The notes beneath the pieces were generated by a model that saw only the letters and a list, made by a program, of their open reading frames with translations, did not search any database and was not told the origin of the DNA. DNA of 59,981 nt, taken from positions 1 to 59,981 of IMG/VR virus record IMGVR_UViG_3300032293_001960. The stretch is one strand, 5' to 3'. The DNA is from a virus (lineage: Duplodnaviria; Caudoviricetes). Shown here one piece after another: positions 3,213 to 32,160 of this stretch. Made by a program: the position numbers and the translations under genes. The stretch's first letter is position 1, and the number at the start of each line of letters is the position of its first letter.

Positions 3213-3816
3213 TCACCCGCTCCGGCTGGTGTTGGTATTTACCCGAGCGGTCTTCGTAGGTGACATCACAGGGATCCCCCTCGAAGAACAGCAGCTGGCA
3301 GATTCCCTCATTGGCATAGATACGGCAGTCAGCCCCTGAGGAGTTGCTGAACTCCAGAGTGAGATTCCCCTCCCAGCCGGCCTCGGCGGGAGTTGCATTT
3401 AAAATGATACCTAGACGGGCGTAAGTGCTCTTTCCCAGGCAGATGACCGTGACATTGCTCGGGACCTTGAGCTTCTCCCGGGCGACTCCGAGCCCATAGG
3501 AGTGGGCCGGGAGAATGAAATAGGTCCCGTCGTTGTCTGAGTTCAGGGCGGCGGGCTCCAGGTTGGCAGGGTTGAACCGCTTGGGGTCCATCACCGTGCC
3601 GGGCACATGGCGGAAGATCAGGAACTCCTTGGGCGAGAGGCGCAGGTCGTAGCCGTAGGAGCTGCAGCCGTATGACAGGGCCGGGACAGTGTCGATCAGA
3701 GTGGGAGAAACAAAGTAGGAACACCTGCGCTCAATGCGGCGTACCAGCTCCGGAGTGAACGGTTCGATCATCCCAGCAGAGGCTTGCTGCTTGATCCAGC
3801 GGTCGTTTTTCAGCAT
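3196..3816 (-). CDS. dcd: dCTP deaminase
   Basis: SYGCSSYGYDLRL, GKSTYAR, TPAEAGWEG, YANEGICQ motifs; start MLKNDRW at 3816. Confidence 0.93.
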   Translation of the reverse strand: MLKNDRWIKQQASAGMIEPFTPELVRRIERRCSYFVSPTLIDTVPALSYGCSSYGYDLRLSPKEFLIFRHVPGTVMDPKRFNPANLEPAALNSDNDGTYFILPAHSYGLGVAREKLKVPSNVTVICLGKSTYARLGIILNATPAEAGWEGNLTLEFSNSSGADCRIYANEGICQLLFFEGDPCDVTYEDRSGKYQHQPERVITARI

Positions 3817-3853
3817 GGAGGGGAATGGGCACGGCCCCGTGTGTGGGCGTCGG

Positions 3854-4210
3854 TCAAGACTTGCAGGCGATGGCGAGGGATCCACAGTCACAATATTCGG
3901 GGCCGTACTGACAGGGGCCACCAGCACATTCCGCAATGGTTACGGGAGAGTAGAGAAAGGGTCTAGTTACCATCTTTGGAGTCAACTGATGATCAGAGGT
4001 GAACATCATGGCGTCACAGGTAATATTTTTATCTAAAAATTCCCAGGGAGGGGTTTTATCAACATCAAATATCATTAGGCCGGGTATATCTGCAATTAGC
4101 TCTGCATAAGAGCATACTGTTTTGACCTGGCTAATTACGTCTTCCTTTTGGAGATTGGTATAGCTCCATTGGTGCTCATCATAAAGATAGAGATGATAAC
4201 AAGTTCCCAT
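3854..4210 (-). CDS. hypothetical protein
   Basis: 118-aa ORF, codirectional with neighbours, Cys-rich C-terminus. Confidence 0.5.
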   Translation of the reverse strand: MGTCYHLYLYDEHQWSYTNLQKEDVISQVKTVCSYAELIADIPGLMIFDVDKTPPWEFLDKNITCDAMMFTSDHQLTPKMVTRPFLYSPVTIAECAGGPCQYGPEYCDCGSLAIACKS

Positions 4211-4288
4211 GGCTTAAGTGGTGTGAGGTGAACTGGCAGACAGGGCGTCACTGATCGTTTGCCAGTGTTCGTCAGAAAGTGTGATCGT

Positions 4289-4564
4289 GCGGGTCATGGA
4301 TTCATCTCCAATGGGGTTGGCACCGGCAGGGCTTGTAGTCAGTCATTTAGCTCCAAGGCAGAATATTTGGGCTGGACGGTTGTCATACAACTTTTGGCAG
4401 GCTTGCCACTTTTGCGGCAACCACCACCAAGCGACTGCAAACATAATCAGAAGGGTTGCTACTGTGGCAATCGCAATGAACTTGTCGTCGTCAGTCATTG
4501 CCACCCTGCGGCTCGGGCTTGGCCAGTTCGGCGCGGGTCATGGATTCATCTCCAATGGGGTTGG
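4289..4564. repeat. 32-bp perfect direct repeat (4289-4320, 4533-4564) at gene junctions
   Basis: minus strand reads CCAACCCCATTGGAGATGAATCCATGACCCGC: GGAG plus start/stop overlap. Confidence 0.9.
4343..4498 (-). CDS. small membrane protein (51 aa, below ORF-track cutoff)
   Basis: manual translation MTDDDKFIAIATVATLLIMFAVAWWWLPQKWQACQKLYDNRPAQIFCLGAK; one hydrophobic helix. Confidence 0.55.
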   Translation of the reverse strand: MTDDDKFIAIATVATLLIMFAVAWWWLPQKWQACQKLYDNRPAQIFCLGAK

Positions 4565-5092
4565 AAGGGGTAGGGCATTATGGGGGAGCGAGTGAGTCCA
4601 GCATGACCACGCCTCTGGCCTATCAAAAACCCAACAGGGGTCTGTGTCGTCCGCGTCAAAACCCCAGCACCAACCGGCTTCATCGCACCATCCCTCACGC
4701 TCCCATGGCCGCTCAGCGACGGGCACCGGCTCGATGACGGGGCGGGCGTAGCGGGCGAGCATGTCTGCAGCGCGGCCAAAGTAGATCCCATCACCCCGAT
4801 CCCTCAGGCTTGCGCCTTCCTGAGTCAGGAAGTGTTCCCGAGTGCGCAGGCACTGGATCAGCTCGTCCACCTCTCCCACCTCCAGCTCAGGCTGGGCCAG
4901 GGCGGCGGCAGGCAGCCAGGTCCTCGTCCCATCCGTCAGCCCCACCCCCTGCGGCTCGGGCTGGGCCAGGGCGGCGCGGACGCGATTCACCAGCGCATCA
5001 TCGTGCTGCTCATTGGCGACTTTGTAGTCGTGTAGCTCGTTCACCAGCTCAGCGCACAGCGCACGAAACGAGATCGAAGTGGGTTGGCTCAT
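4538..5092 (-). CDS. hypothetical modular phage protein (RALCAEL / AALAQPE family)
   Basis: internal AALAQPE repeat; C-terminal WCD..GWCW...THSLPHNALPLP segment. Confidence 0.65.
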   Translation of the reverse strand: MSQPTSISFRALCAELVNELHDYKVANEQHDDALVNRVRAALAQPEPQGVGLTDGTRTWLPAAALAQPELEVGEVDELIQCLRTREHFLTQEGASLRDRGDGIYFGRAADMLARYARPVIEPVPVAERPWEREGWCDEAGWCWGFDADDTDPCWVFDRPEAWSCWTHSLPHNALPLPTPLEMNP

Positions 5093-5391
5093 GATTCAGG
5101 TGGTCGCGGATTTGCAGGAATGGTTCTTGCCAGCTCAAGCAGATCCTCCCTAGAGAAGCAGCCGTCTAGCTCTATGTCGCCGTCACAGTATTCATAGATG
5201 TAATTTTCCCTGTGTTTGCGCATGTCGTTACATTCCTGCACGGTGAGTGCCTCCGGCTCAGGCTTGGCCAGTTCGGCGCGGGTGCGGGTGATCAGATCGG
5301 CATCTGCTGTGTCTTCAGGTGGACCACCACCAAGCTGCCATTCAGCCAAGGCATTAACCAGCTCAGCACACCGCTCTCTCCAATCAGTCAT
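5089..5391 (-). CDS. hypothetical protein, paralogous N-terminus to 4538..5092
   Basis: RERCAELVNAL...RAELAKPEPE; ATGA overlap. Confidence 0.65.
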   Translation of the reverse strand: MTDWRERCAELVNALAEWQLGGGPPEDTADADLITRTRAELAKPEPEALTVQECNDMRKHRENYIYEYCDGDIELDGCFSREDLLELARTIPANPRPPES

Positions 5392-5517
5392 TTTTCAGAC
5401 CGTTGATAGTAATAGTGTTAGACATGATAACTTGGTTGGTAAAGGAACTAAAGGTTGGTAAGGTTTCTAGCCGGAGCCTGCTGAGCACTTGCATCCTAAA
5501 CAGGACAGCTATGCGTT

Positions 5518-6838
5518 TTGACGTACTCCCCGGCCTGAAGGCGGGAGATTCTCGGATCTTCAGGAGCCCTCATGGTGCTTCCCCTCCCCGAGCTTCTCTA
5601 GCGCCCAGCCCGGACGCTGAATGGATTCCACGCTTGAGCACCACCTGAGCGGCGGCTACATCCCGATCGGCGGTGTAGCCGCACTCCGGGCAGTCGTGGA
5701 CACGAACACTGAGATCCTTCGGCACTGCCGCCCCGCACTCGGGGCATTGCTGGCTGGTGCCCCTGGCATCCACCTTCTTCACGCAGACGCCACGCTTCAG
5801 CCCGACCCATTGCAGGATCGAGATGAACTGGCTCCAGCCTGCATCGAGCACCTGCTTCGACAGGTTGCCGCGTGCCATCCCTGCGATGTTCAGCGCCTCA
5901 ACCACGATGGTGTCGGCGGTGTCGCAGAGCCGGTGGGCTTCCTTGAAGTGGAAGTCCTTGCGGACATTGCTCAGGCGTTCGTGTTGCCTGGCGAGACGGT
6001 GCATGGCGATGCGCCAGCGGCTGCTCCCCTTGCGCTTCTTCGATGCCGAACGGTTCAGCTCTTTCAGCCTGTGTTGTCCGGTCTCGAAGAAACGGGGATT
6101 GGCCACCAACTCACCGGCACTGGTCGCCAGGAAGCTTTTGATGCCGACATCGACGCCGATCGCATTGCCGTGCGGCTGCGGTTCGGGGATGTCGATGTCC
6201 TGCTCAAGCGAGAGCATGGCGTAGAAGCCAGACGCTCGCTTGACGATCCGCACCTGCTTGACGATGGCGCCATCAGGCAGCGGACGAGACTGGCGTAGCT
6301 TCACCCAGCCGATCTTCGGCAGGCTGATGCGGCCAGCAGATAACACCTGCTTGTTCAACTGTGGGAACAGGAAAGACCTGATCCGTTTCTTGAACCTTGG
6401 GAAGCCCAGTCCTCGCTCCCATGTCGCCACAAAGGATGCCTCCAGGTTGCGGAGGACTTGCTGGAGAACATGGGTGTGAGGTTCCTTCAGCCATGGCCGT
6501 GATGGCTTGGCGGCTGCCAATGCAGCGCACTGCTTGGCGAAGGTGGGCTTGGGTGCATCCGGCGGAATGATGTACTCCTGCCGGATCGAGCAGGCGTTGA
6601 CGGGTGATTTCTTCGCACGAGCGAAGTCCCGTCGCTCAGCCAGGGCGTAGTTCCAGACGCCTTTGCAGATATCCAGCCAGCGGTCGAAAGTCTCGACCTG
6701 GGCGGGCGTCGGCAGCAGCTTGAACTCGTAGGTCTGGTTAAGCATGACTAAATGCTAGCCGTTTTCTTCAGGCTGTGCTGGACAAGGCTTTGAGGGAAAG
6801 CCGCCCTGAAGGGCGGGGCTTGAGACCCAGTTCCAAGG
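5518..6838 (-). mobile_element. IS1341-type (tnpB-only) IS200/IS605 element
   Basis: left end CCTTGGAACTGGG with hairpin GCCGCCC-TGAA-GGGCGG after 5' flank TGAC; right-end hairpin ending in TCAA. Confidence 0.85.
5570..6745 (-). CDS. tnpB: RNA-guided endonuclease TnpB
   Basis: HTH N-terminus; RuvC GVDVG / VVEAL / DRDVAAA; CPECG..CPECG zinc ribbon. Confidence 0.95.
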   Translation of the reverse strand: MLNQTYEFKLLPTPAQVETFDRWLDICKGVWNYALAERRDFARAKKSPVNACSIRQEYIIPPDAPKPTFAKQCAALAAAKPSRPWLKEPHTHVLQQVLRNLEASFVATWERGLGFPRFKKRIRSFLFPQLNKQVLSAGRISLPKIGWVKLRQSRPLPDGAIVKQVRIVKRASGFYAMLSLEQDIDIPEPQPHGNAIGVDVGIKSFLATSAGELVANPRFFETGQHRLKELNRSASKKRKGSSRWRIAMHRLARQHERLSNVRKDFHFKEAHRLCDTADTIVVEALNIAGMARGNLSKQVLDAGWSQFISILQWVGLKRGVCVKKVDARGTSQQCPECGAAVPKDLSVRVHDCPECGYTADRDVAAAQVVLKRGIHSASGLGAREARGGEAP

Positions 6839-20637: not shown

Positions 20638-21020
20638 TTCTCGATGTACTGGCGGATCACGGTGATCGGAGCCCCCCCGCAAGAACCGGCGAAGTAGCTT
20701 GGACTCCATAGGTGTTCTGCGTGGGGGCGCAGCGGGAACTCCTTGCGAAGCATCCGGCTGGATACGCCCTTCATGGCGTTCACGATCCCGGCCACCGATT
20801 GCTTGGGCGGGTACTCGACCAAGAGGTGAACGTGATCGGGCTCACCGTTCAACTCCAGCAACACGCAGTCCAGCTTCTGGGCAACACCCTGGCAGACCTC
20901 CCGCATCCGGTCCAGCTCCGCATCACCTAAGACCTTGCGCCGGTATTTGATCGTGAAGACCAAGTGGACCACAAGCCGAGAAACGCTGTGCCGGCCTCGC
21001 CGAAGCTTGTCTAGTTGCAT
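20619..21020 (-). CDS. tnpA: IS200/IS605 Y1 HUH transposase TnpA
   Basis: HLVFTIKYRR, DHVHLL, WSPSYF, YIENQ. Confidence 0.95.
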   Translation of the reverse strand: MQLDKLRRGRHSVSRLVVHLVFTIKYRRKVLGDAELDRMREVCQGVAQKLDCVLLELNGEPDHVHLLVEYPPKQSVAGIVNAMKGVSSRMLRKEFPLRPHAEHLWSPSYFAGSCGGAPITVIRQYIENQGKSP

Positions 21021-21048
21021 GGCAAACCCAAGTTGGTATGCTGTTGGG

Positions 21049-22332
21049 ATGAAGGCACGTTACCGCTTCCGCCTGTATCCGCATCCGCACCAGCGCATCG
21101 CGTTGGCGCAGCTGTTCGGCTGCACCCGGCGGGTGTGGAACGATGCCCTGGCTCACTGCCAAGGGCTGCGGGCAGCGGGCAAGAAAACACCTTCTGGCTA
21201 CGCCCTGCGTAACTGGATGTCCGCCGCCAAAGCAGGTGTCCCTTGGCTCGCAGCGGCACCCTCAACGCCGCTGTGCGAATCGGTGCTGGACTTGGCGGTT
21301 GCCTACAAGAACTTCTGGGCCAGCTGCACTGGTAAGCGCAAGGGGCCGAAGGTGCGGGCGCCTCGCTTCAAGTCGAAGCGAGACAGCCGCCAGGCCGCTC
21401 GGTTCACGAAGGTGGCCTTTCGCTGCCATGAACGCACCCTGCAGCTCCAGAAAATCGGCAAGGTGCCCATCGAGTGGAGCCGGGATCTACCGGCGGAGCC
21501 CAGCTCTTGCACGGTGATCCGTGATGCCTCGGGCCGCTACTTCGCCTCCTTTGTAGTGGAAGTGGCTGGCGCCAACTCCTGCGCCATTCGCCCCCAGGAA
21601 GGGCGAGCCATCGGCATTGACTTGGGCTTGGCATCCCTCGCCATCACCTCTGACGGCGAAAAGGTGCCCCTGCCAAAGCACTTCGATGCGGCGCGGAAGC
21701 GGCTGCGTCACCTGCAGCGGCAGGCGGCGAGGAAACGCCGTTGTGTCTCCAAGGGCACGAAGGCATCGAATCGCCTCAAGGCCGTGGATCGCAAGATCGC
21801 CAGGCTTCACGCCAGAGTTGCAGACCAGAGAACCAATGGGCTGCACCAACTGACGAGCCGCCTGGTGCGCGATCACGACTTCATCGCCATCGAGGATCTC
21901 AATGTGTCCGCGATGCTGAAGGCGCCGAAGCCGGTGCTGGATGAAGCGATGGCTCGCTGGCTGCCCAATGGCCGCGCCTCAAAGCGTAGCCTGGCCCGTG
22001 GCATCTCCGATGCTGGCTGGGCCACCTTCCGCACCATGCTGGAGCAGAAGGCCGACCGTGCCGGTAAACGGGTGGTGGCGGTGAACCCCGCCTACACCAG
22101 CCAGCGGTGCAACCACTGCGGCCACACCGAAGCCGCCAACCGCCCGAAGCAGGACACCTTCCGGTGCCAGAGCTGCGGGCACACCGAATATGCCGACATC
22201 AACGCGGCACGAAACATCTTGGAGGCCGGACTGGCCTTGTCTGGACGTGGAGCCTTGCGTAATTCCGAGCCTCGCTTGGTTGCTGGCTGCGAAGCGTCAA
22301 CCCACCTGAAGGTGATGGCTCATGCAGCCTGA
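21049..22332 (+). CDS. tnpB: RNA-guided endonuclease TnpB
   Basis: MKARYRFRLYP start; RuvC GIDLG / IEDL / ADINAA; zinc ribbon. Confidence 0.95.
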   Translation: MKARYRFRLYPHPHQRIALAQLFGCTRRVWNDALAHCQGLRAAGKKTPSGYALRNWMSAAKAGVPWLAAAPSTPLCESVLDLAVAYKNFWASCTGKRKGPKVRAPRFKSKRDSRQAARFTKVAFRCHERTLQLQKIGKVPIEWSRDLPAEPSSCTVIRDASGRYFASFVVEVAGANSCAIRPQEGRAIGIDLGLASLAITSDGEKVPLPKHFDAARKRLRHLQRQAARKRRCVSKGTKASNRLKAVDRKIARLHARVADQRTNGLHQLTSRLVRDHDFIAIEDLNVSAMLKAPKPVLDEAMARWLPNGRASKRSLARGISDAGWATFRTMLEQKADRAGKRVVAVNPAYTSQRCNHCGHTEAANRPKQDTFRCQSCGHTEYADINAARNILEAGLALSGRGALRNSEPRLVAGCEASTHLKVMAHAA

Positions 22333-27798: not shown

Positions 27799-28044
27799 AT
27801 GACCGATGCCGAATTTCTCGAACACGTTCGCAGCATCTGCCCCACCAAGGCCTGCTACAGCACCTCCGCCGAAGCCAAAGCGATGATGCGTAGGCGTCAG
27901 TTCTCCGGCAGGCCCTACGCCTGCCCCTGGTGCGACTTTTGGCACATCACGACTCTTGACCGAGTCCGCAGTAAAGCGTTCTCTCGTCGCCTTAAAAGTA
28001 TCCGCTCTTTGGAGTTTGAAGATTCATGCGCTATTCCGTCTTGA
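27799..28044 (+). CDS. small Zn-ribbon protein
   Basis: CPTKACY...YACPWCDFWHIT. Confidence 0.6.
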   Translation: MTDAEFLEHVRSICPTKACYSTSAEAKAMMRRRQFSGRPYACPWCDFWHITTLDRVRSKAFSRRLKSIRSLEFEDSCAIPS

Positions 28045-28208
28045 TCTTTTGCCTATCGTTGTTGACTGGTTGTGCTTCTAGTTATCGCTCATTTCCGCAA
28101 ACCGAAGCACGACAGTTTTACTATTCTATTGCAGAGTCTCATTCGTGCACAGACCCTGTAATGCCTAGTCTAGTATCAGTTCCACCATTTAGTTATTATG
28201 CGAAATAG
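28026..28208 (+). CDS. small lipoprotein
   Basis: signal peptide with lipobox LLTGC. Confidence 0.45.
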   Translation: MRYSVLIFCLSLLTGCASSYRSFPQTEARQFYYSIAESHSCTDPVMPSLVSVPPFSYYAK

Positions 28209-28455
28209 CAACAGCAGCTTGATAAGCACTCTTATCAGTATAAGAAACCCATGGCGTTTCAGTCCTGGTGACACGGCTTATGTTCGTGGTTGGTCTCAGG
28301 ACTATCCAGTAACGATCGAGGCCCCAGCAGAGTTCGGCGAAGGCTTACGCCGCGTCACGGTCCCGCACTACCACTGCCGTGACCACCTGGGCGGCACCTG
28401 GCTGCTGAGCCAGCTGCATCTGTCCAGATCACCAATTTCGGAGCGCAAGCGATGA
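28198..28455 (+). CDS. hypothetical protein
   Basis: PWRFSPGDTAYV...PHYHCRD...W..SQLHLS; ATGA overlap with the next gene. Confidence 0.55.
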   Translation: MRNSNSSLISTLISIRNPWRFSPGDTAYVRGWSQDYPVTIEAPAEFGEGLRRVTVPHYHCRDHLGGTWLLSQLHLSRSPISERKR

Positions 28456-29168
28456 CAGCTAACCGGCCACTGCGCGGCGGCTCGTGGATCCACCTCCCGC
28501 ACGACTGCCGCGCCGCCTTCCGGCTCAGCGGCTACCCGGACAGCACCGGCTCCAACCTCGGCCTGCGTCCCTGCTGTATCCTTCCCCTCCCCCATTCATC
28601 TCTCAATCCCTCAGAAACCATGACGACCTCCAATCACACTATTTCCGCCTCTGCTCTCAACCTGCCCATGGTGTCCATCGCCCCAGGGCGCTTCATGATG
28701 GGATCCAATTCACCGTCGGCTTTCTCTGATGAGAAGCCGGTCCATGAGGTGATTATCGACAAGGGCTTCGAGATGGCGGAGACTCCGACCACCCAAGCCC
28801 AGTGGCGATGGGTCGCCGAGAACCTGCCCAAGGTCGAGCGCGATCTCGATCCTGATCCTTCGCGCTTCAAGGGCGACAGCCGCCCGGTCGAGCGCATCTC
28901 CTGGTATGACGCCATGGAATTCTGTGCCCGCCTCAGCCGGGCTACAGGCAAGACATACACCCTTCCCACCGAGGAACAGTGGGAGTACGCCTGCCGCGCA
29001 GGCACCACCACTGAATTCGCTTTCGGGGACACCCTCGATGAGTCCCAGGCACGCTTCAACGCAGACTCCACCTGCGATGTCAAGCAGTACAAAGCCAACG
29101 CCTGGGGCCTCTACGACATGCACGGGCAGGTCTTCGAGTGGTGCCTTAACGAGTACCAACCCTACTGA
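28452..29168 (+). CDS. FGE-sulfatase / C-type-lectin-fold scaffold lacking its C-terminal variable region, with an N-terminal VR-like module (second start at 28620)
   Basis: FMMGS, EKPVHEV, TPTTQAQW, PVERISW, LPTEEQWEYACRAG, NAWGLYDMHGQVFEWC then stop; RGGSW..CRAAFR..NLGLR at the N-terminus. Confidence 0.88.
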   Translation: MTANRPLRGGSWIHLPHDCRAAFRLSGYPDSTGSNLGLRPCCILPLPHSSLNPSETMTTSNHTISASALNLPMVSIAPGRFMMGSNSPSAFSDEKPVHEVIIDKGFEMAETPTTQAQWRWVAENLPKVERDLDPDPSRFKGDSRPVERISWYDAMEFCARLSRATGKTYTLPTEEQWEYACRAGTTTEFAFGDTLDESQARFNADSTCDVKQYKANAWGLYDMHGQVFEWCLNEYQPY

Positions 29169-29178
29169 TTCCCCTCCT

Positions 29179-29463
29179 ATGCACTCTGATCTGCGGGGCG
29201 GCTCCTGGGACAGCAACCCCGGGGACTGCCGCTCGGCCTTCCGCGACCTCAACCAGCCCGTCTATGCCAACGGCAACGTCGGCTTCCGTGTGGTGTGCCT
29301 CCCCGGGGAGGTAGCACCACCCCGGATGCTGCTGCGCGGCGGCTCTTGGGTCAACGACCCCAGGCTCTGTCGCTCGGCCTGGGGCGGCCACGCCCTGCCC
29401 GGCAATGCCAGCCTCAACTCCGGGTTTCGTGTGGTGTGCCTCCCCGGGGAGGTGACACCATGA
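29179..29463 (+). CDS. mini-gene with two tandem CLec variable-region modules
   Basis: MHSD-LRGGSW..CRSA..GFRVVCLP twice. Confidence 0.7.
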   Translation: MHSDLRGGSWDSNPGDCRSAFRDLNQPVYANGNVGFRVVCLPGEVAPPRMLLRGGSWVNDPRLCRSAWGGHALPGNASLNSGFRVVCLPGEVTP

Positions 29464-29750
29464 CAACTCGTGACACCCTTCGGCTGTTTCGCGTGCGCGG
29501 CGGCTCCTGGGACGGCTACCCCAGGTACTGCCGCTCGGCCTACAGCAACCACGCCCGGCCCGGCGATGCCAACGACGACGTCGGGTTTCGTGTGGTGTGC
29601 CTCCCCGGGGAGGTAGCACCACCCCGGATGCTGCTGCGCGGCGGCTCCTGGGACATTGGTAACTACCGGTTCTGCCGCTCGGCCTTCCGCTACCACTTCC
29701 AGCCCGACGTTGCCAACGACTTCATCGGGTTTCGTGTGGTGTGCCTCCCT
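29191..29750 (+). repeat. array of four DGR variable-region-like repeats (29191, 29332, 29493, 29634)
   Basis: 141-bp spacing within pairs; invariant framework, variation at codon positions 1-2. Confidence 0.92.
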
Positions 29751-29804
29751 GCCCCCGAGATCGTAGCCGCTGCTGCCCTCCGCGCCCTGGAGGACCATGG
29801 CTGA
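29460..29804 (+). CDS. mini-gene with two tandem CLec variable-region modules
   Basis: ATGA-coupled start after GGAGGT; MTTRDTLRLFR-VRGGSW..GFRVVCLP twice. Confidence 0.75.
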   Translation: MTTRDTLRLFRVRGGSWDGYPRYCRSAYSNHARPGDANDDVGFRVVCLPGEVAPPRMLLRGGSWDIGNYRFCRSAFRYHFQPDVANDFIGFRVVCLPAPEIVAAAALRALEDHG

Positions 29805-29960
29805 CCCAGCTTCACTAGAGCAACTGAGCAGGGCCGCTGAATCAGCAGCGGAGAGATATGTCGTAACTGACGCAAGTTCGTATCAGTTGCTGAACATTAT
29901 CAGCTGTCTTGAGTCCGCGGCTGCCATATTACGGAGGAAAGCATTCAGGAGACAGTTATT

Positions 29961-30185
29961 ATGACTGAACAACAGCAGCATCCCAGCAGCCCGCCTCAAG
30001 AGCTGCGAGACAAATGGAGAGAAGCGCAAACGGCAGAAGAACTCATATCGCAAATAGAGAATGAGGCTCTTCGAGTGCTTGACTCGAAGATGCCTGTTAC
30101 TCGTCCTCCTTGGATTATGACAAAAGACCTTTACGACAAAGCCGCTGCTGCCTTCCGCGCCCTGGAGGCCCTTCCCGATGACTGA
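29961..30185 (+). CDS. hypothetical protein
   Basis: QHPSSPPQEL...RALEALPDD; AGGAG RBS. Confidence 0.6.
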   Translation: MTEQQQHPSSPPQELRDKWREAQTAEELISQIENEALRVLDSKMPVTRPPWIMTKDLYDKAAAAFRALEALPDD

Positions 30186-30227
30186 CCTACTCACCCGACT
30201 GCTGGCCCTTGCTGGGGAGGTGACACC

Positions 30228-30491
30228 GTGGTGATTTGGAAGTTTGAGTTGAAAATTACGGACATGCAGGAAGTGACGATGCCAGAGGGCGCAGAGTTGC
30301 TAAGCGTGGCGAACCAGAACGGCAACCTATGCCTTTGGGCGATGGTCGATCCGTCGAAGGAAAAGCGACATCGTTACATCGAGATCATTGGGACAGGCAA
30401 CCCGATGCCAACAGACATGGGTATTGACCGGAAGTTTATCGGCACAGCGGTTATGAATCCGTTTGTGTGGCATGTGTTTGAGCGTCGGTAA
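30228..30491 (+). CDS. conserved phage hypothetical protein
   Basis: IWKFEL..MPEGAELLSV..LWAMVDP..GTGNP..FVWHVFE; strong SD. Confidence 0.7.
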   Translation: MVIWKFELKITDMQEVTMPEGAELLSVANQNGNLCLWAMVDPSKEKRHRYIEIIGTGNPMPTDMGIDRKFIGTAVMNPFVWHVFERR

Positions 30492-31707: not shown

Positions 31708-32160
31708 ATGCCCGGACGTAATCCCAACCCTATTGACGGCTTACGGGAGCAGGAACGGATGGCTGTAGCACTCCTGGCCCAGGGCAAAACGAACCGCGCC
31801 ACCGCTACCGAGCTCGGCATATCAGAGCGTGCACTGTACAACTGGCGTCAAAAACCTGTGGTTCAACGTGCTATCTTCCTCAGGCAGCAGCAAATAATTT
31901 CAGACAACGAAAGCCAAACTATAGAACTTCTGCCCGAGGCGATTAGCACTCTTAAAGCCATCATGCAGGACTCCCGTGCTCGTCCCTCCGATCGCATTGC
32001 TGCTTCTCGTGCCCTGATCAACGGTGCAGGTCGCTATCAAGAGACCCAAATGCTAAACCGCAAGTTGGCCAACCTTGAAGCGATGGTGGACCCCCTGACC
32101 GCAGAACTTCTCCCCGAGGACGAGGATAATCTCCCTTCATTCGAGCCTACCGATGAATGA
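31708..32160 (+). CDS. terminase small subunit (HTH)
   Basis: N-terminal HTH TATELGISERALYNW; overlaps the large subunit start. Confidence 0.7.
   Translation: MPGRNPNPIDGLREQERMAVALLAQGKTNRATATELGISERALYNWRQKPVVQRAIFLRQQQIISDNESQTIELLPEAISTLKAIMQDSRARPSDRIAASRALINGAGRYQETQMLNRKLANLEAMVDPLTAELLPEDEDNLPSFEPTDE

Follow-up and report, generated by a model that had tools for sequence, protein, structure and literature searches.

The variable proteins of diversity-generating retroelements (DGRs) are the standard example of a protein fold that tolerates massive C-terminal variation. In TvpA the variable module forms the C terminus, with the reverse transcriptase (RT) and the template repeat (TR) encoded nearby, and the variable repeats (VRs) of DGRs have as their 3′ cis elements a GC-rich initiation-of-mutagenic-homing (IMH) sequence and a hairpin that follows the VR. 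Here we analyse a linear IMG/VR virus record in its whole length, IMGVR_UViG_3300032293_001960 (Duplodnaviria; Caudoviricetes; 59,981 bases; CheckV completeness estimate 86%), referred to as the window, in which an open reading frame (ORF) at positions 28452-29168 carries a DGR-type variable cassette, c1, in front of a scaffold of the FGE-sulfatase and C-type-lectin (CLec) type. With moderate confidence we take this ORF to encode a circularly permuted DGR-type FGE/CLec fold.

The predicted structure of the ORF product shares the fold of TvpA from Treponema denticola (PDB 2y3c; Foldseek probability 1.00, TM-score 0.55), and c1 has in common with the FGE-type CLec proteins of DGRs a variable module of the form RGGSW...CRxA...GxR that is written in NNC codons. 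The systems differ in layout: in the DGR targets of the cyanobacterial genomes G006, G128 and G171 the module is C-terminal and a TR lies nearby, whereas in the phage it is N-terminal and there is no C-terminal copy, with neither RT nor TR found in the phage records searched. Throughout, W denotes the window locus, L-codes other loci or viral records, P-codes homologous proteins, G-codes cyanobacterial genomes (G006 being Synechococcus sp. Tobar12-5m-g), and X1 and X2 metagenome runs. Among described phages, Ma-LMM01, MaMV-DC and related Microcystis phages possess CLec/FGE-sulfatase genes whose products are 45-47% identical to scaffold residues 66-236 (39% for Mic1); these matches cover the scaffold only (57-72% of the query) and are annotated as hypothetical protein or kinase. 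A DNA search with positions 28000-30300 found no match in GenBank phages.

Wu et al. 2018 (PMC5758913) report three DGRs with an N-terminal VR, whose IMH must then fall within coding sequence, and a target in which three FGE-sulfatase domains stand in tandem. In the portion of that paper available to us the N-terminal VR targets are not described as permuted FGE/CLec folds, and one of them concerns a ribosomal protein S3 domain. The accessible text of a cyanobacterial survey places VR matches only near 3′ ends and describes Synechococcus as lacking DGRs (Vallota-Eastman et al. 2020, PMC7517822); the DGR of Synechococcus sp. Tobar12-5m-g contrasts with that absence. In a limited literature search we found no published permuted CLec and no RT-less phage cassette array.

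The ORF comprises the following elements.

28440 to 28443, + strand: GGAG, a Shine-Dalgarno (SD)-like motif read from the sequence, 8 nt before ATG 28452
28452 to 29168, + strand: ORF consisting of cassette c1, linker and FGE/CLec scaffold; 238 amino acids, TGA stop at 29166-29168, no internal stop
28470 to 28577, + strand: cassette c1, 36 codons of the DGR-VR type with a CRAA...GLRPCC framework
28578 to 28619, + strand: Ser/Pro-rich linker, predicted to be disordered, without a hairpin
28620 to 29168, + strand: scaffold ORF from the internal ATG at 28620-28622, 182 codons with a conserved stop and without a C-terminal VR

As the initial annotation had stated, c1 stands in frame upstream of the scaffold with no stop between them, in one 238-codon frame that leads from 28452 to the TGA at 29166-29168, and a second in-frame ATG is present at 28620-28622. 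Cassette c1 occupies residues 7-42 of the product (LRGGSWIHLPHDCRAAFRLSGYPDSTGSNLGLRPCC). The scaffold matches the Pfam family FGE-sulfatase (PF03781) over positions 5-194 of 255 with 140 bits, far above the curated cut-off of 23.3 bits, and the ORF stops after profile position 194. Taken alone, c1 matches positions 214-252 of the same profile (21.2 bits, E 2.5e-4, just under the 23.3-bit cut-off) and corresponds to the last strands of the FGE-sulfatase fold. The canonical order, scaffold first and RGGSW module last, is reversed here: what stands at the N terminus is the homologue of the segment that canonical proteins have at their C terminus, where this ORF has no copy, as expected of a circular permutation. 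The motif CGCGGCGGCTCNTGG, with up to two mismatches allowed, occurs five times in the window, always at this locus, compared with a mean of 0.8 in shuffled sequence, where 1 of 100 shuffles reached five.

The ATG at 28452 overlaps the stop codon of the upstream ORF 28198-28455 (ATGA), which suggests that the two are translationally coupled. In L006, L007 and L008, GGGAGGT precedes the cassette-scaffold ORF at the same distance as GGAG does here, and no SD-like motif is seen ahead of the internal ATG at 28620. We infer that translation starts at 28452 and that c1 docks onto the scaffold in cis.

The arrangement is conserved among relatives. Five complete loci were compared, namely W, L006, L007 and L008 (81-84% identity) and L096 (78%), along with L097, which is cut by a contig end. 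In all six the cassette adjoins the scaffold in phase, and a stop between the two, a possibility considered in the initial annotation, is absent from 5/5 complete relatives and from L097. Linker length stays in frame throughout (15 codons in W, 12 in L006 and 10 in L096), while the fused cassette is of the RPCC type in W and L006-L008 and of the GFRVVC type in L096, a locus that has no cassette downstream of the scaffold. Read from the internal ATG, the scaffold comprises 182 codons and ends at the same stop in all five complete relatives, and its dN/dS amounts to 0.072-0.20 over 10 pairs, with dS up to 0.88. From these ratios and the shared stop, we conclude that strong purifying selection acts on a scaffold from which about 60 profile positions are missing. 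The conserved stop and the low dN/dS also led us to reject a pseudogene with a recent nonsense mutation.

A census of 95 sources, carried out on the + strand with our own hidden Markov models and the window among their seeds, yielded 115 scaffold matches. Most of these (83) have the canonical layout, in which an open in-frame cassette follows the scaffold and none precedes it, and a further 12 are canonical units in tandem arrays whose upstream cassette lies in another frame (9) or is blocked by a stop (3). Eight loci, W, L006-L008, L096, L399, L400 and L401, possess an open in-frame upstream cassette and no in-frame downstream one. The remainder have no cassette on either side (6, some at contig ends), an in-frame downstream cassette behind a stop (4), or a downstream cassette in another frame only (2; L009 and L403). 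Thus, of the 20 scaffolds preceded by a cassette at a distance of no more than 200 nt, that cassette is open in frame in 8/8 without a C-terminal cassette and in 0/12 with one; the rows are related, and L351 alone supplies eight of the 12. On a quick, poorly resolved tree the permuted rows form two sequence-diverged groups. Independent origins of the permuted form were considered and not adopted: this tree needs two changes, but its starred branches allow one.

Circular permutation by duplication and subsequent truncation is a general model of protein evolution, and the homologues resemble what it describes, with tandem in-frame copies, partly truncated intermediates and a fully permuted form among them. 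Tandem scaffold-cassette units occur in L101 and L105 (in one frame) and in L351, and P0009-P0011 have both an N-terminal cassette and a C-terminal VR; taken as intermediates, these proteins and the tandem loci fit a duplication-and-truncation route. L351 itself, a 121-kb viral record with terminal repeats (CheckV 100%), contains nine canonical scaffold-plus-cassette units in tandem and no RVT_1 match. Separately, some canonical homologues, P0010, P0013, P0014, P0016 and L403:5555-5662, show an out-of-frame copy of a cassette ('...SCAAAPG...') that forms the spacer between the scaffold and the in-frame VR.

AlphaFold2 (AF2) modelled the 238-residue protein from a 103-row alignment with a mean predicted local distance difference test score (pLDDT) of 82.4 and a predicted TM-score of 0.84. 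Successive ten-residue blocks of c1 reach pLDDT values of 65, 65, 75 and 86; residues 5-8, 24-27 and 41-43 are modelled as strands, and the linker residues 48-61 fall below 50. Foldseek matched this model to pFGE (1y4j), PvdO (5hha), TvpA (2y3c) and FGE (1y1h), each at probability 1.00 and with TM-scores of 0.45-0.61. When the scaffold (residues 57-238) and c1 (residues 1-47) were modelled as two chains, the score was 0.94, versus 0.02 for the best of three controls. The docking mark applied here was reached by 58 of 80 solved complexes and by 2 of 110 mismatched pairs, rough counts for which our own alignment was used. The two-chain runs agreed in at least 98% of contacts with a partner pLDDT of at least 89, and the scaffold attained a pLDDT of 91-92 with c1 and of 64-68 with unrelated partners. 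According to the contact list, c1 residues 6-8 and 36-39 lie against scaffold residues 227-231, and scaffold residues 71, 73 and 75 of the first strand take part in the interface. The model supports, rather than shows, binding of c1 to the scaffold, and its docking pass may stem from likeness to solved FGE structures. As modelled, c1 can take the place of the canonical last strands; whether it does so goes beyond the model.

We propose the following mechanism. A variable strand module of about 40 residues (RGGSW...C-R-x-A...G-x-R), normally terminal, would here be placed N-terminally as c1 and be joined by a flexible linker of about 26 residues to a scaffold truncated exactly where the module would normally start. 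Cassette c1 would then fold back and supply the strands that the scaffold lacks. Most likely this layout arose by duplication and truncation from tandem CLec target genes. Cassette c1 appears to descend from the CRAA/RPCC template family of Cyanobiaceae DGRs, whereas the scaffold and c2-c5, the cassettes further downstream, seem nearer to the GFRVVCLP family, and the gene would belong to an operon in which cassette mini-ORFs are translationally coupled.

The framework codons of c1, as the initial annotation had noted, differ from those of c2-c5, with TCG TGG in place of TCC/TCT TGG, CCG in place of CCC, GCC GCC in place of TCG GCC and CTG CGT CCC TGC in place of TTC/TTT CGT GTG GTG TGC. The further statement that the putative variable codons of c1 all end in C applies to 17 of 17; third-position C has a frequency of 0.49 in the scaffold, and the corresponding chance of about 5e-6 has to be read with the variable positions having been picked after relatives had been seen.

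Two template families could be distinguished in cyanobacterial genomes. G006 has a canonical DGR, with the RT beside a TR that reads RGGSW-NNN-P...GFRVVCLP and VRs that match this TR at 93/94 non-A positions. Cassettes c2-c4 agree with the GFRVVCLP-type TR at 79-84 of 94 non-A positions and c1 at 66 of 94. A pattern based on the c1 framework matched 38 genomes out of 401 drawn from the family to which G006 belongs. Its sites occur in pairs 1788 nt apart in G128 and G171, where they represent a canonical C-terminal VR and its TR with the framework CRAA...GVRPCC, the VRs matching their TR at 84/84 non-A positions. Relative to this TR, c1 agrees at 71/84 non-A positions and its L006 counterpart at 75/84, and c1 is 56% identical over 41 amino acids to the C-terminal VR of the G128 target. 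The likeness of c1 to these Cyanobiaceae targets (G128:C17 and G171:C145) is one of framework, whereas the architecture differs: the VR of G128 stands at the end of a 1131-residue protein that consists of DUF4062, a P-loop NTPase (NACHT below cut-off) and FGE-sulfatase. In G006, one of the targets combines TIR_2 with FGE-sulfatase. VR/TR pairs with TIR or DUF4062-NTPase targets are thus seen in G006 (locus L011), G128:C17 and G171:C145, and an RT was found only in G006.

These comparisons support a real second template family (CRAA/RPCC) to which c1 would belong, although, judged by the same alignments, c1 is not a VR of the TRs found. A TR hunt across viral contigs and species-representative genomes returned none that matches c1 at every non-A position. 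The initial annotation had proposed that two different DGR templates fed this locus and that a second TR with the c1 framework should be sought. The second family and its CRAA/GVRPCC TRs do exist in G128 and G171, with agreement to c1 at only 71/84 positions; that DGRs fed the locus goes further than the data, with neither RT nor TR found in the phage records searched. The scaffold, in contrast, has its nearer counterparts in the G006 targets, with 45-48% identity as against 37.5% for the G128 target, and the c1-scaffold pair therefore looks chimeric.

An exact 18-mer of the c1 3′ framework had one match in viral contigs (L319), which on translation contained no cassette and was dismissed as chance, and an exact 23-mer of the c3-c5 3′ framework had none in viral contigs. 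The 18-base CRAA pattern was met in at least 119 stretches of viral contigs, most of which are likely chance matches in GC-rich DNA. At 28517 and 28523 run X1 shows loose ends, where other contigs share the c1 5′ framework and then continue with AAC-rich letters like those of CRAA-family TRs and VRs; organisms with a CRAA-family DGR may therefore be in the same sample as the phage.

An RVT_1 search gave no match in the window (estimated 86% complete), none in five related viral records (three at least 90% complete) and none over the cut-off in 20 further records (nine at least 90% complete), two weak matches having E values of about 0.005. As a positive control, the same search detected RTs in three of three cyanobacterial genomes. 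Neither the window nor the four related records searched, two of which are complete, yielded a TR; in these four records all FGE/cassette matches lie at the one locus, which leaves no remote TR.

Among close relatives, c1 is the most variable part of the protein. P0001 (92% identity) differs from W at 19 positions, 11 of them in the 36-residue cassette and 7 in the 182-residue scaffold, and P0002 (89% identity) at 26, with 13 in the cassette and 10 in the scaffold; in this protein comparison all cassette differences fall on the usual variable sites. Among the differences listed for contigs of other lake runs, four are in c1, all at codon position 1 or 2 of NNC, and two of these four DNA differences recreate P0001 residues. 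The pattern fits adenine-directed mutagenesis. We infer that c1 owes its variability to the trans action of a host DGR; cellular DGRs are documented to act on remote targets (PMC5758913).

Several observations weigh against a circularly permuted protein. RT and TR were not found in the phage records searched, and c1 is without the 3′ hairpin that c2-c4 possess. The Met at the scaffold start is kept in the relatives read, which are 38-92% identical to the window protein, and P0006 and P0007 are called from this residue. L009, which is sister to the window's clade, lacks an N-terminal cassette, so that fusion in cis is not universal; its separate two-cassette ORF begins 2 nt past the scaffold stop. 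The eight permuted loci are related and the quick tree allows a single origin, and the contrast of eight with 12 loci consequently overstates their independence. In the AF2 model of the 283-residue L096 ORF, which has two N-terminal cassettes and a scaffold, residues 1-39 and 51-105 have a pLDDT below 50 and neither cassette docked confidently. Moreover, the structural models are predictions. The idea raised in the initial annotation that the CLec fold is circularly permuted gains from the cross-locus comparison and from the docking model of W, but stays short of proof with the L096 cassettes undocked; likewise, docking of the N-terminal peptide into the fold is favoured by the two-chain model of W (0.94 versus 0.02) and disfavoured by the AF2 model of L096.

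The principal alternative involves the cassettes downstream of the scaffold, which are arranged as follows.

29179 to 29463, + strand: mini-ORF with c2 (29191-29298) and c3 (29332-29439), 94 amino acids, in the +1 frame relative to the scaffold
29460 to 29804, + strand: mini-ORF with c4 (29493-29600) and c5 (29634-29744), 114 amino acids, in the frame of the scaffold
29298 to 29311, no strand assigned: 14-nt palindrome CCTCCCCGGGGAGG at the 3′ end of c2, found again at 29439-29452 and 29600-29613

Both mini-ORFs match Pfam FGE-sulfatase, that of c2 and c3 with 39.7 bits in two stretches at profile positions 217-254 and that of c4 and c5 with 41.4 bits. GGAGGTGACACC precedes the ATG of the 29460-29804 ORF, which in turn overlaps the stop of the 29179-29463 ORF (ATGA). 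The palindrome CCTCCCCGGGGAGG forms a GC-rich hairpin, its loop being 4 nt long, and includes the SD motif of the next start; the segment 29285-29345 folds at -16.9 kcal/mol (z -2.38, with 3 of 200 shuffles as good). Such GC hairpins with a 4-nt loop follow c2, c3 and c4, whereas the flank of c1 does not fold, the linker DNA 28560-28630 reaching -0.4 kcal/mol (z +1.34). In W, L006-L008, L009 and L096, 36 of 36 cassettes reside in intact ATG-initiated ORFs of one to four cassettes each, many with GGAGGT upstream and ATGA stop-start overlaps. By their sequence, the cassettes appear to form a translationally coupled operon and not debris. A programmed frameshift from the scaffold into c2 was rejected: it would need +1 in W and -1 in L009, the gap from the scaffold stop to the next cassette is about 400 nt in L006-L008, and L096 has no downstream cassette. 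In run X2 a contig joins 29192 to 29331 and represents a close relative without c2; the number of cassettes differs among relatives. In L401, a viral record of 87.8 kb that has terminal repeats, short ORFs with 15 cassette matches are strung together upstream of the scaffold (3297-6147), the last match being fused to it; this chain is located in AT-richer DNA and its cassettes diverge far beyond what A-site changes alone would give.

These mini-ORFs allow for a split lectin, in which the scaffold would be made alone from ATG 28620 and be completed in trans by c1, if that is released or made separately, or by the co-expressed c2-c3 or c4-c5 mini-protein. A mixture of binding surfaces would result, and such a system may coexist with the cis form. 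We consider it doubtful, although it is the main rival. That every one of the 36 cassettes is kept in an intact ORF, many of them with GGAGGT and ATGA overlaps, would be expected of separately made partners, and in L401 and L009 most or all cassettes are indeed separate from the scaffold, as 15 matches in upstream mini-ORFs and as an independent two-cassette ORF, respectively. The internal Met is conserved, and c1 was modelled onto the scaffold as a separate chain (0.94 versus 0.02), a pass that may reflect solved FGE structures. Yet an SD-like motif is found at every cassette ORF and none at the internal ATG, and in L096 and L399 the cassettes are exclusively fused to the scaffold. On sequence grounds, Met 28620 probably marks where an ancestral, stand-alone CLec gene started, and translation may still begin there; both a VR-free scaffold product from this Met, as the initial annotation had suggested, and a start codon that is merely ancestral are plausible.

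The permuted reading also has to be weighed against a relic, in which c1 would be the leftover 3′ VR of an upstream tandem paralogue with a deleted scaffold, its frame incidental and its role nil. Tandem arrays are common in the family (L101, L102, L105 and L351), the N-terminal cassette tail of P0010, P0013 and P0016 (CCLPQGRSILHRI...) is the same as the end of a canonical neighbour, and c1 and scaffold differ in affinity, the identity of the latter being 45-48% with the targets of G006 and 37.5% with that of G128. A relic would, however, hardly retain its own ATG, an SD-like motif and every framework residue while being the part that varies most among close relatives. It would also leave unexplained why an upstream cassette is open in 0/12 loci with their own C-terminal VR and in 8/8 without, and why a scaffold without about 60 profile positions is under strong purifying selection. 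We therefore regard a relic as unlikely.

In pilin and Vls antigenic variation, silent cassettes recombine into an expressed locus. By analogy, c2-c5 and the longer arrays could be donors that replace the N-terminal cassette by recombination or gene conversion, without reverse transcription. The window and 25 related records gave no RT match over the cut-off, arrays range from two to 15 cassettes, their number varies among relatives (the X2 contig lacks c2), and the fused position holds a GFRVVC-type cassette in L096 and an RPCC-type cassette in W. But each cassette has a start codon and a motif resembling a ribosome-binding site and does not look silent, and the variation among W, P0001 and P0002 affects only the NNC sites and leaves the framework unchanged, the outcome expected of A-directed mutagenesis. 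Furthermore, c1 has a framework unlike that of c2-c5, which consequently cannot be its donors here, and we judge such a library very improbable. An assembly artefact, in which VR variants of a mixed population were wrongly strung together, is scarcely credible: the X1 assembly does split into short unitigs within c3-c5, but these cassette unitigs are of comparable depth, a single contig of X1 covers 28200-29316 with 0 differences, the same c1-scaffold layout recurs in five other records from other samples, and the junction sequences between cassettes are unique to their positions.

If the ORF indeed encodes a circularly permuted lectin, a conserved and selected form with an N-terminal variable module would mean that scaffold and variable strands of the CLec fold can be separated as modules, which would be useful for the engineering of binder libraries. 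The chains of cassette mini-ORFs in RT-less phages further raise the question whether a host retroelement can diversify prophage genes or whether the phages hold cassette diversity that was made beforehand. A combinatorial form of the split lectin would combine these features: a scaffold without a VR, partly made from the internal start, would be completed by the fused cassette or by one of 2-15 co-translated mini-proteins, with host DGRs diversifying the prophage cassettes in trans. We see little likelihood of this scheme as a whole.

The host proteins with the same two frameworks carry TIR or NTPase domains and thereby connect the locus with the question of DGR-diversified immune sensors. 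DGR-diversified CLec domains on NACHT proteins have been proposed to act as antigen sensors (Doré et al. 2024, PMC10907252); that paper does not use the word "decoy". The host targets of the TIR or DUF4062 plus NTPase and CLec type resemble defence sensors, and within the same improbable combinatorial scheme the phage set might therefore serve as decoy or competitor of the diversified sensors.

The frameworks, the lake-water runs and the Microcystis-phage homologues are the basis for calling the virus a cyanophage, and it is probably a temperate freshwater cyanophage without an RT. Metagenome runs with parts of the locus are labelled lake water or freshwater, and the Logan contig with 0 differences over 28200-29316 comes from run X1, possibly the source sample. 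With the putative window terminase as the only query, no match was found in five Cyanobiaceae genomes with matching frameworks. By Pfam the window further encodes a family A DNA polymerase, a primase-helicase, a sigma-70 factor and a DUF932 protein, and an integrase-family match is weak (26.5 bits, cut-off 27.1). An HTH protein lies directly upstream of two long ORFs at 32157 and 34521, which are taken to be terminase and portal from position and size only.

Two genes similar to TnpB/IS605 OrfB are located at 5570-6745 (- strand) and 20935-22332 (+ strand), with OrfB_IS605 and Cas12f1-like TNB domains. Downstream of the cassettes, a 32-nt direct repeat (94% identical) at 29765-29796 and 30140-30171 flanks two small ORFs, 29797-29964 and 29961-30185. 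Past 29793 an X1 contig continues with letters that resemble the sequence just after the second repeat copy, which suggests a population variant without these two ORFs.

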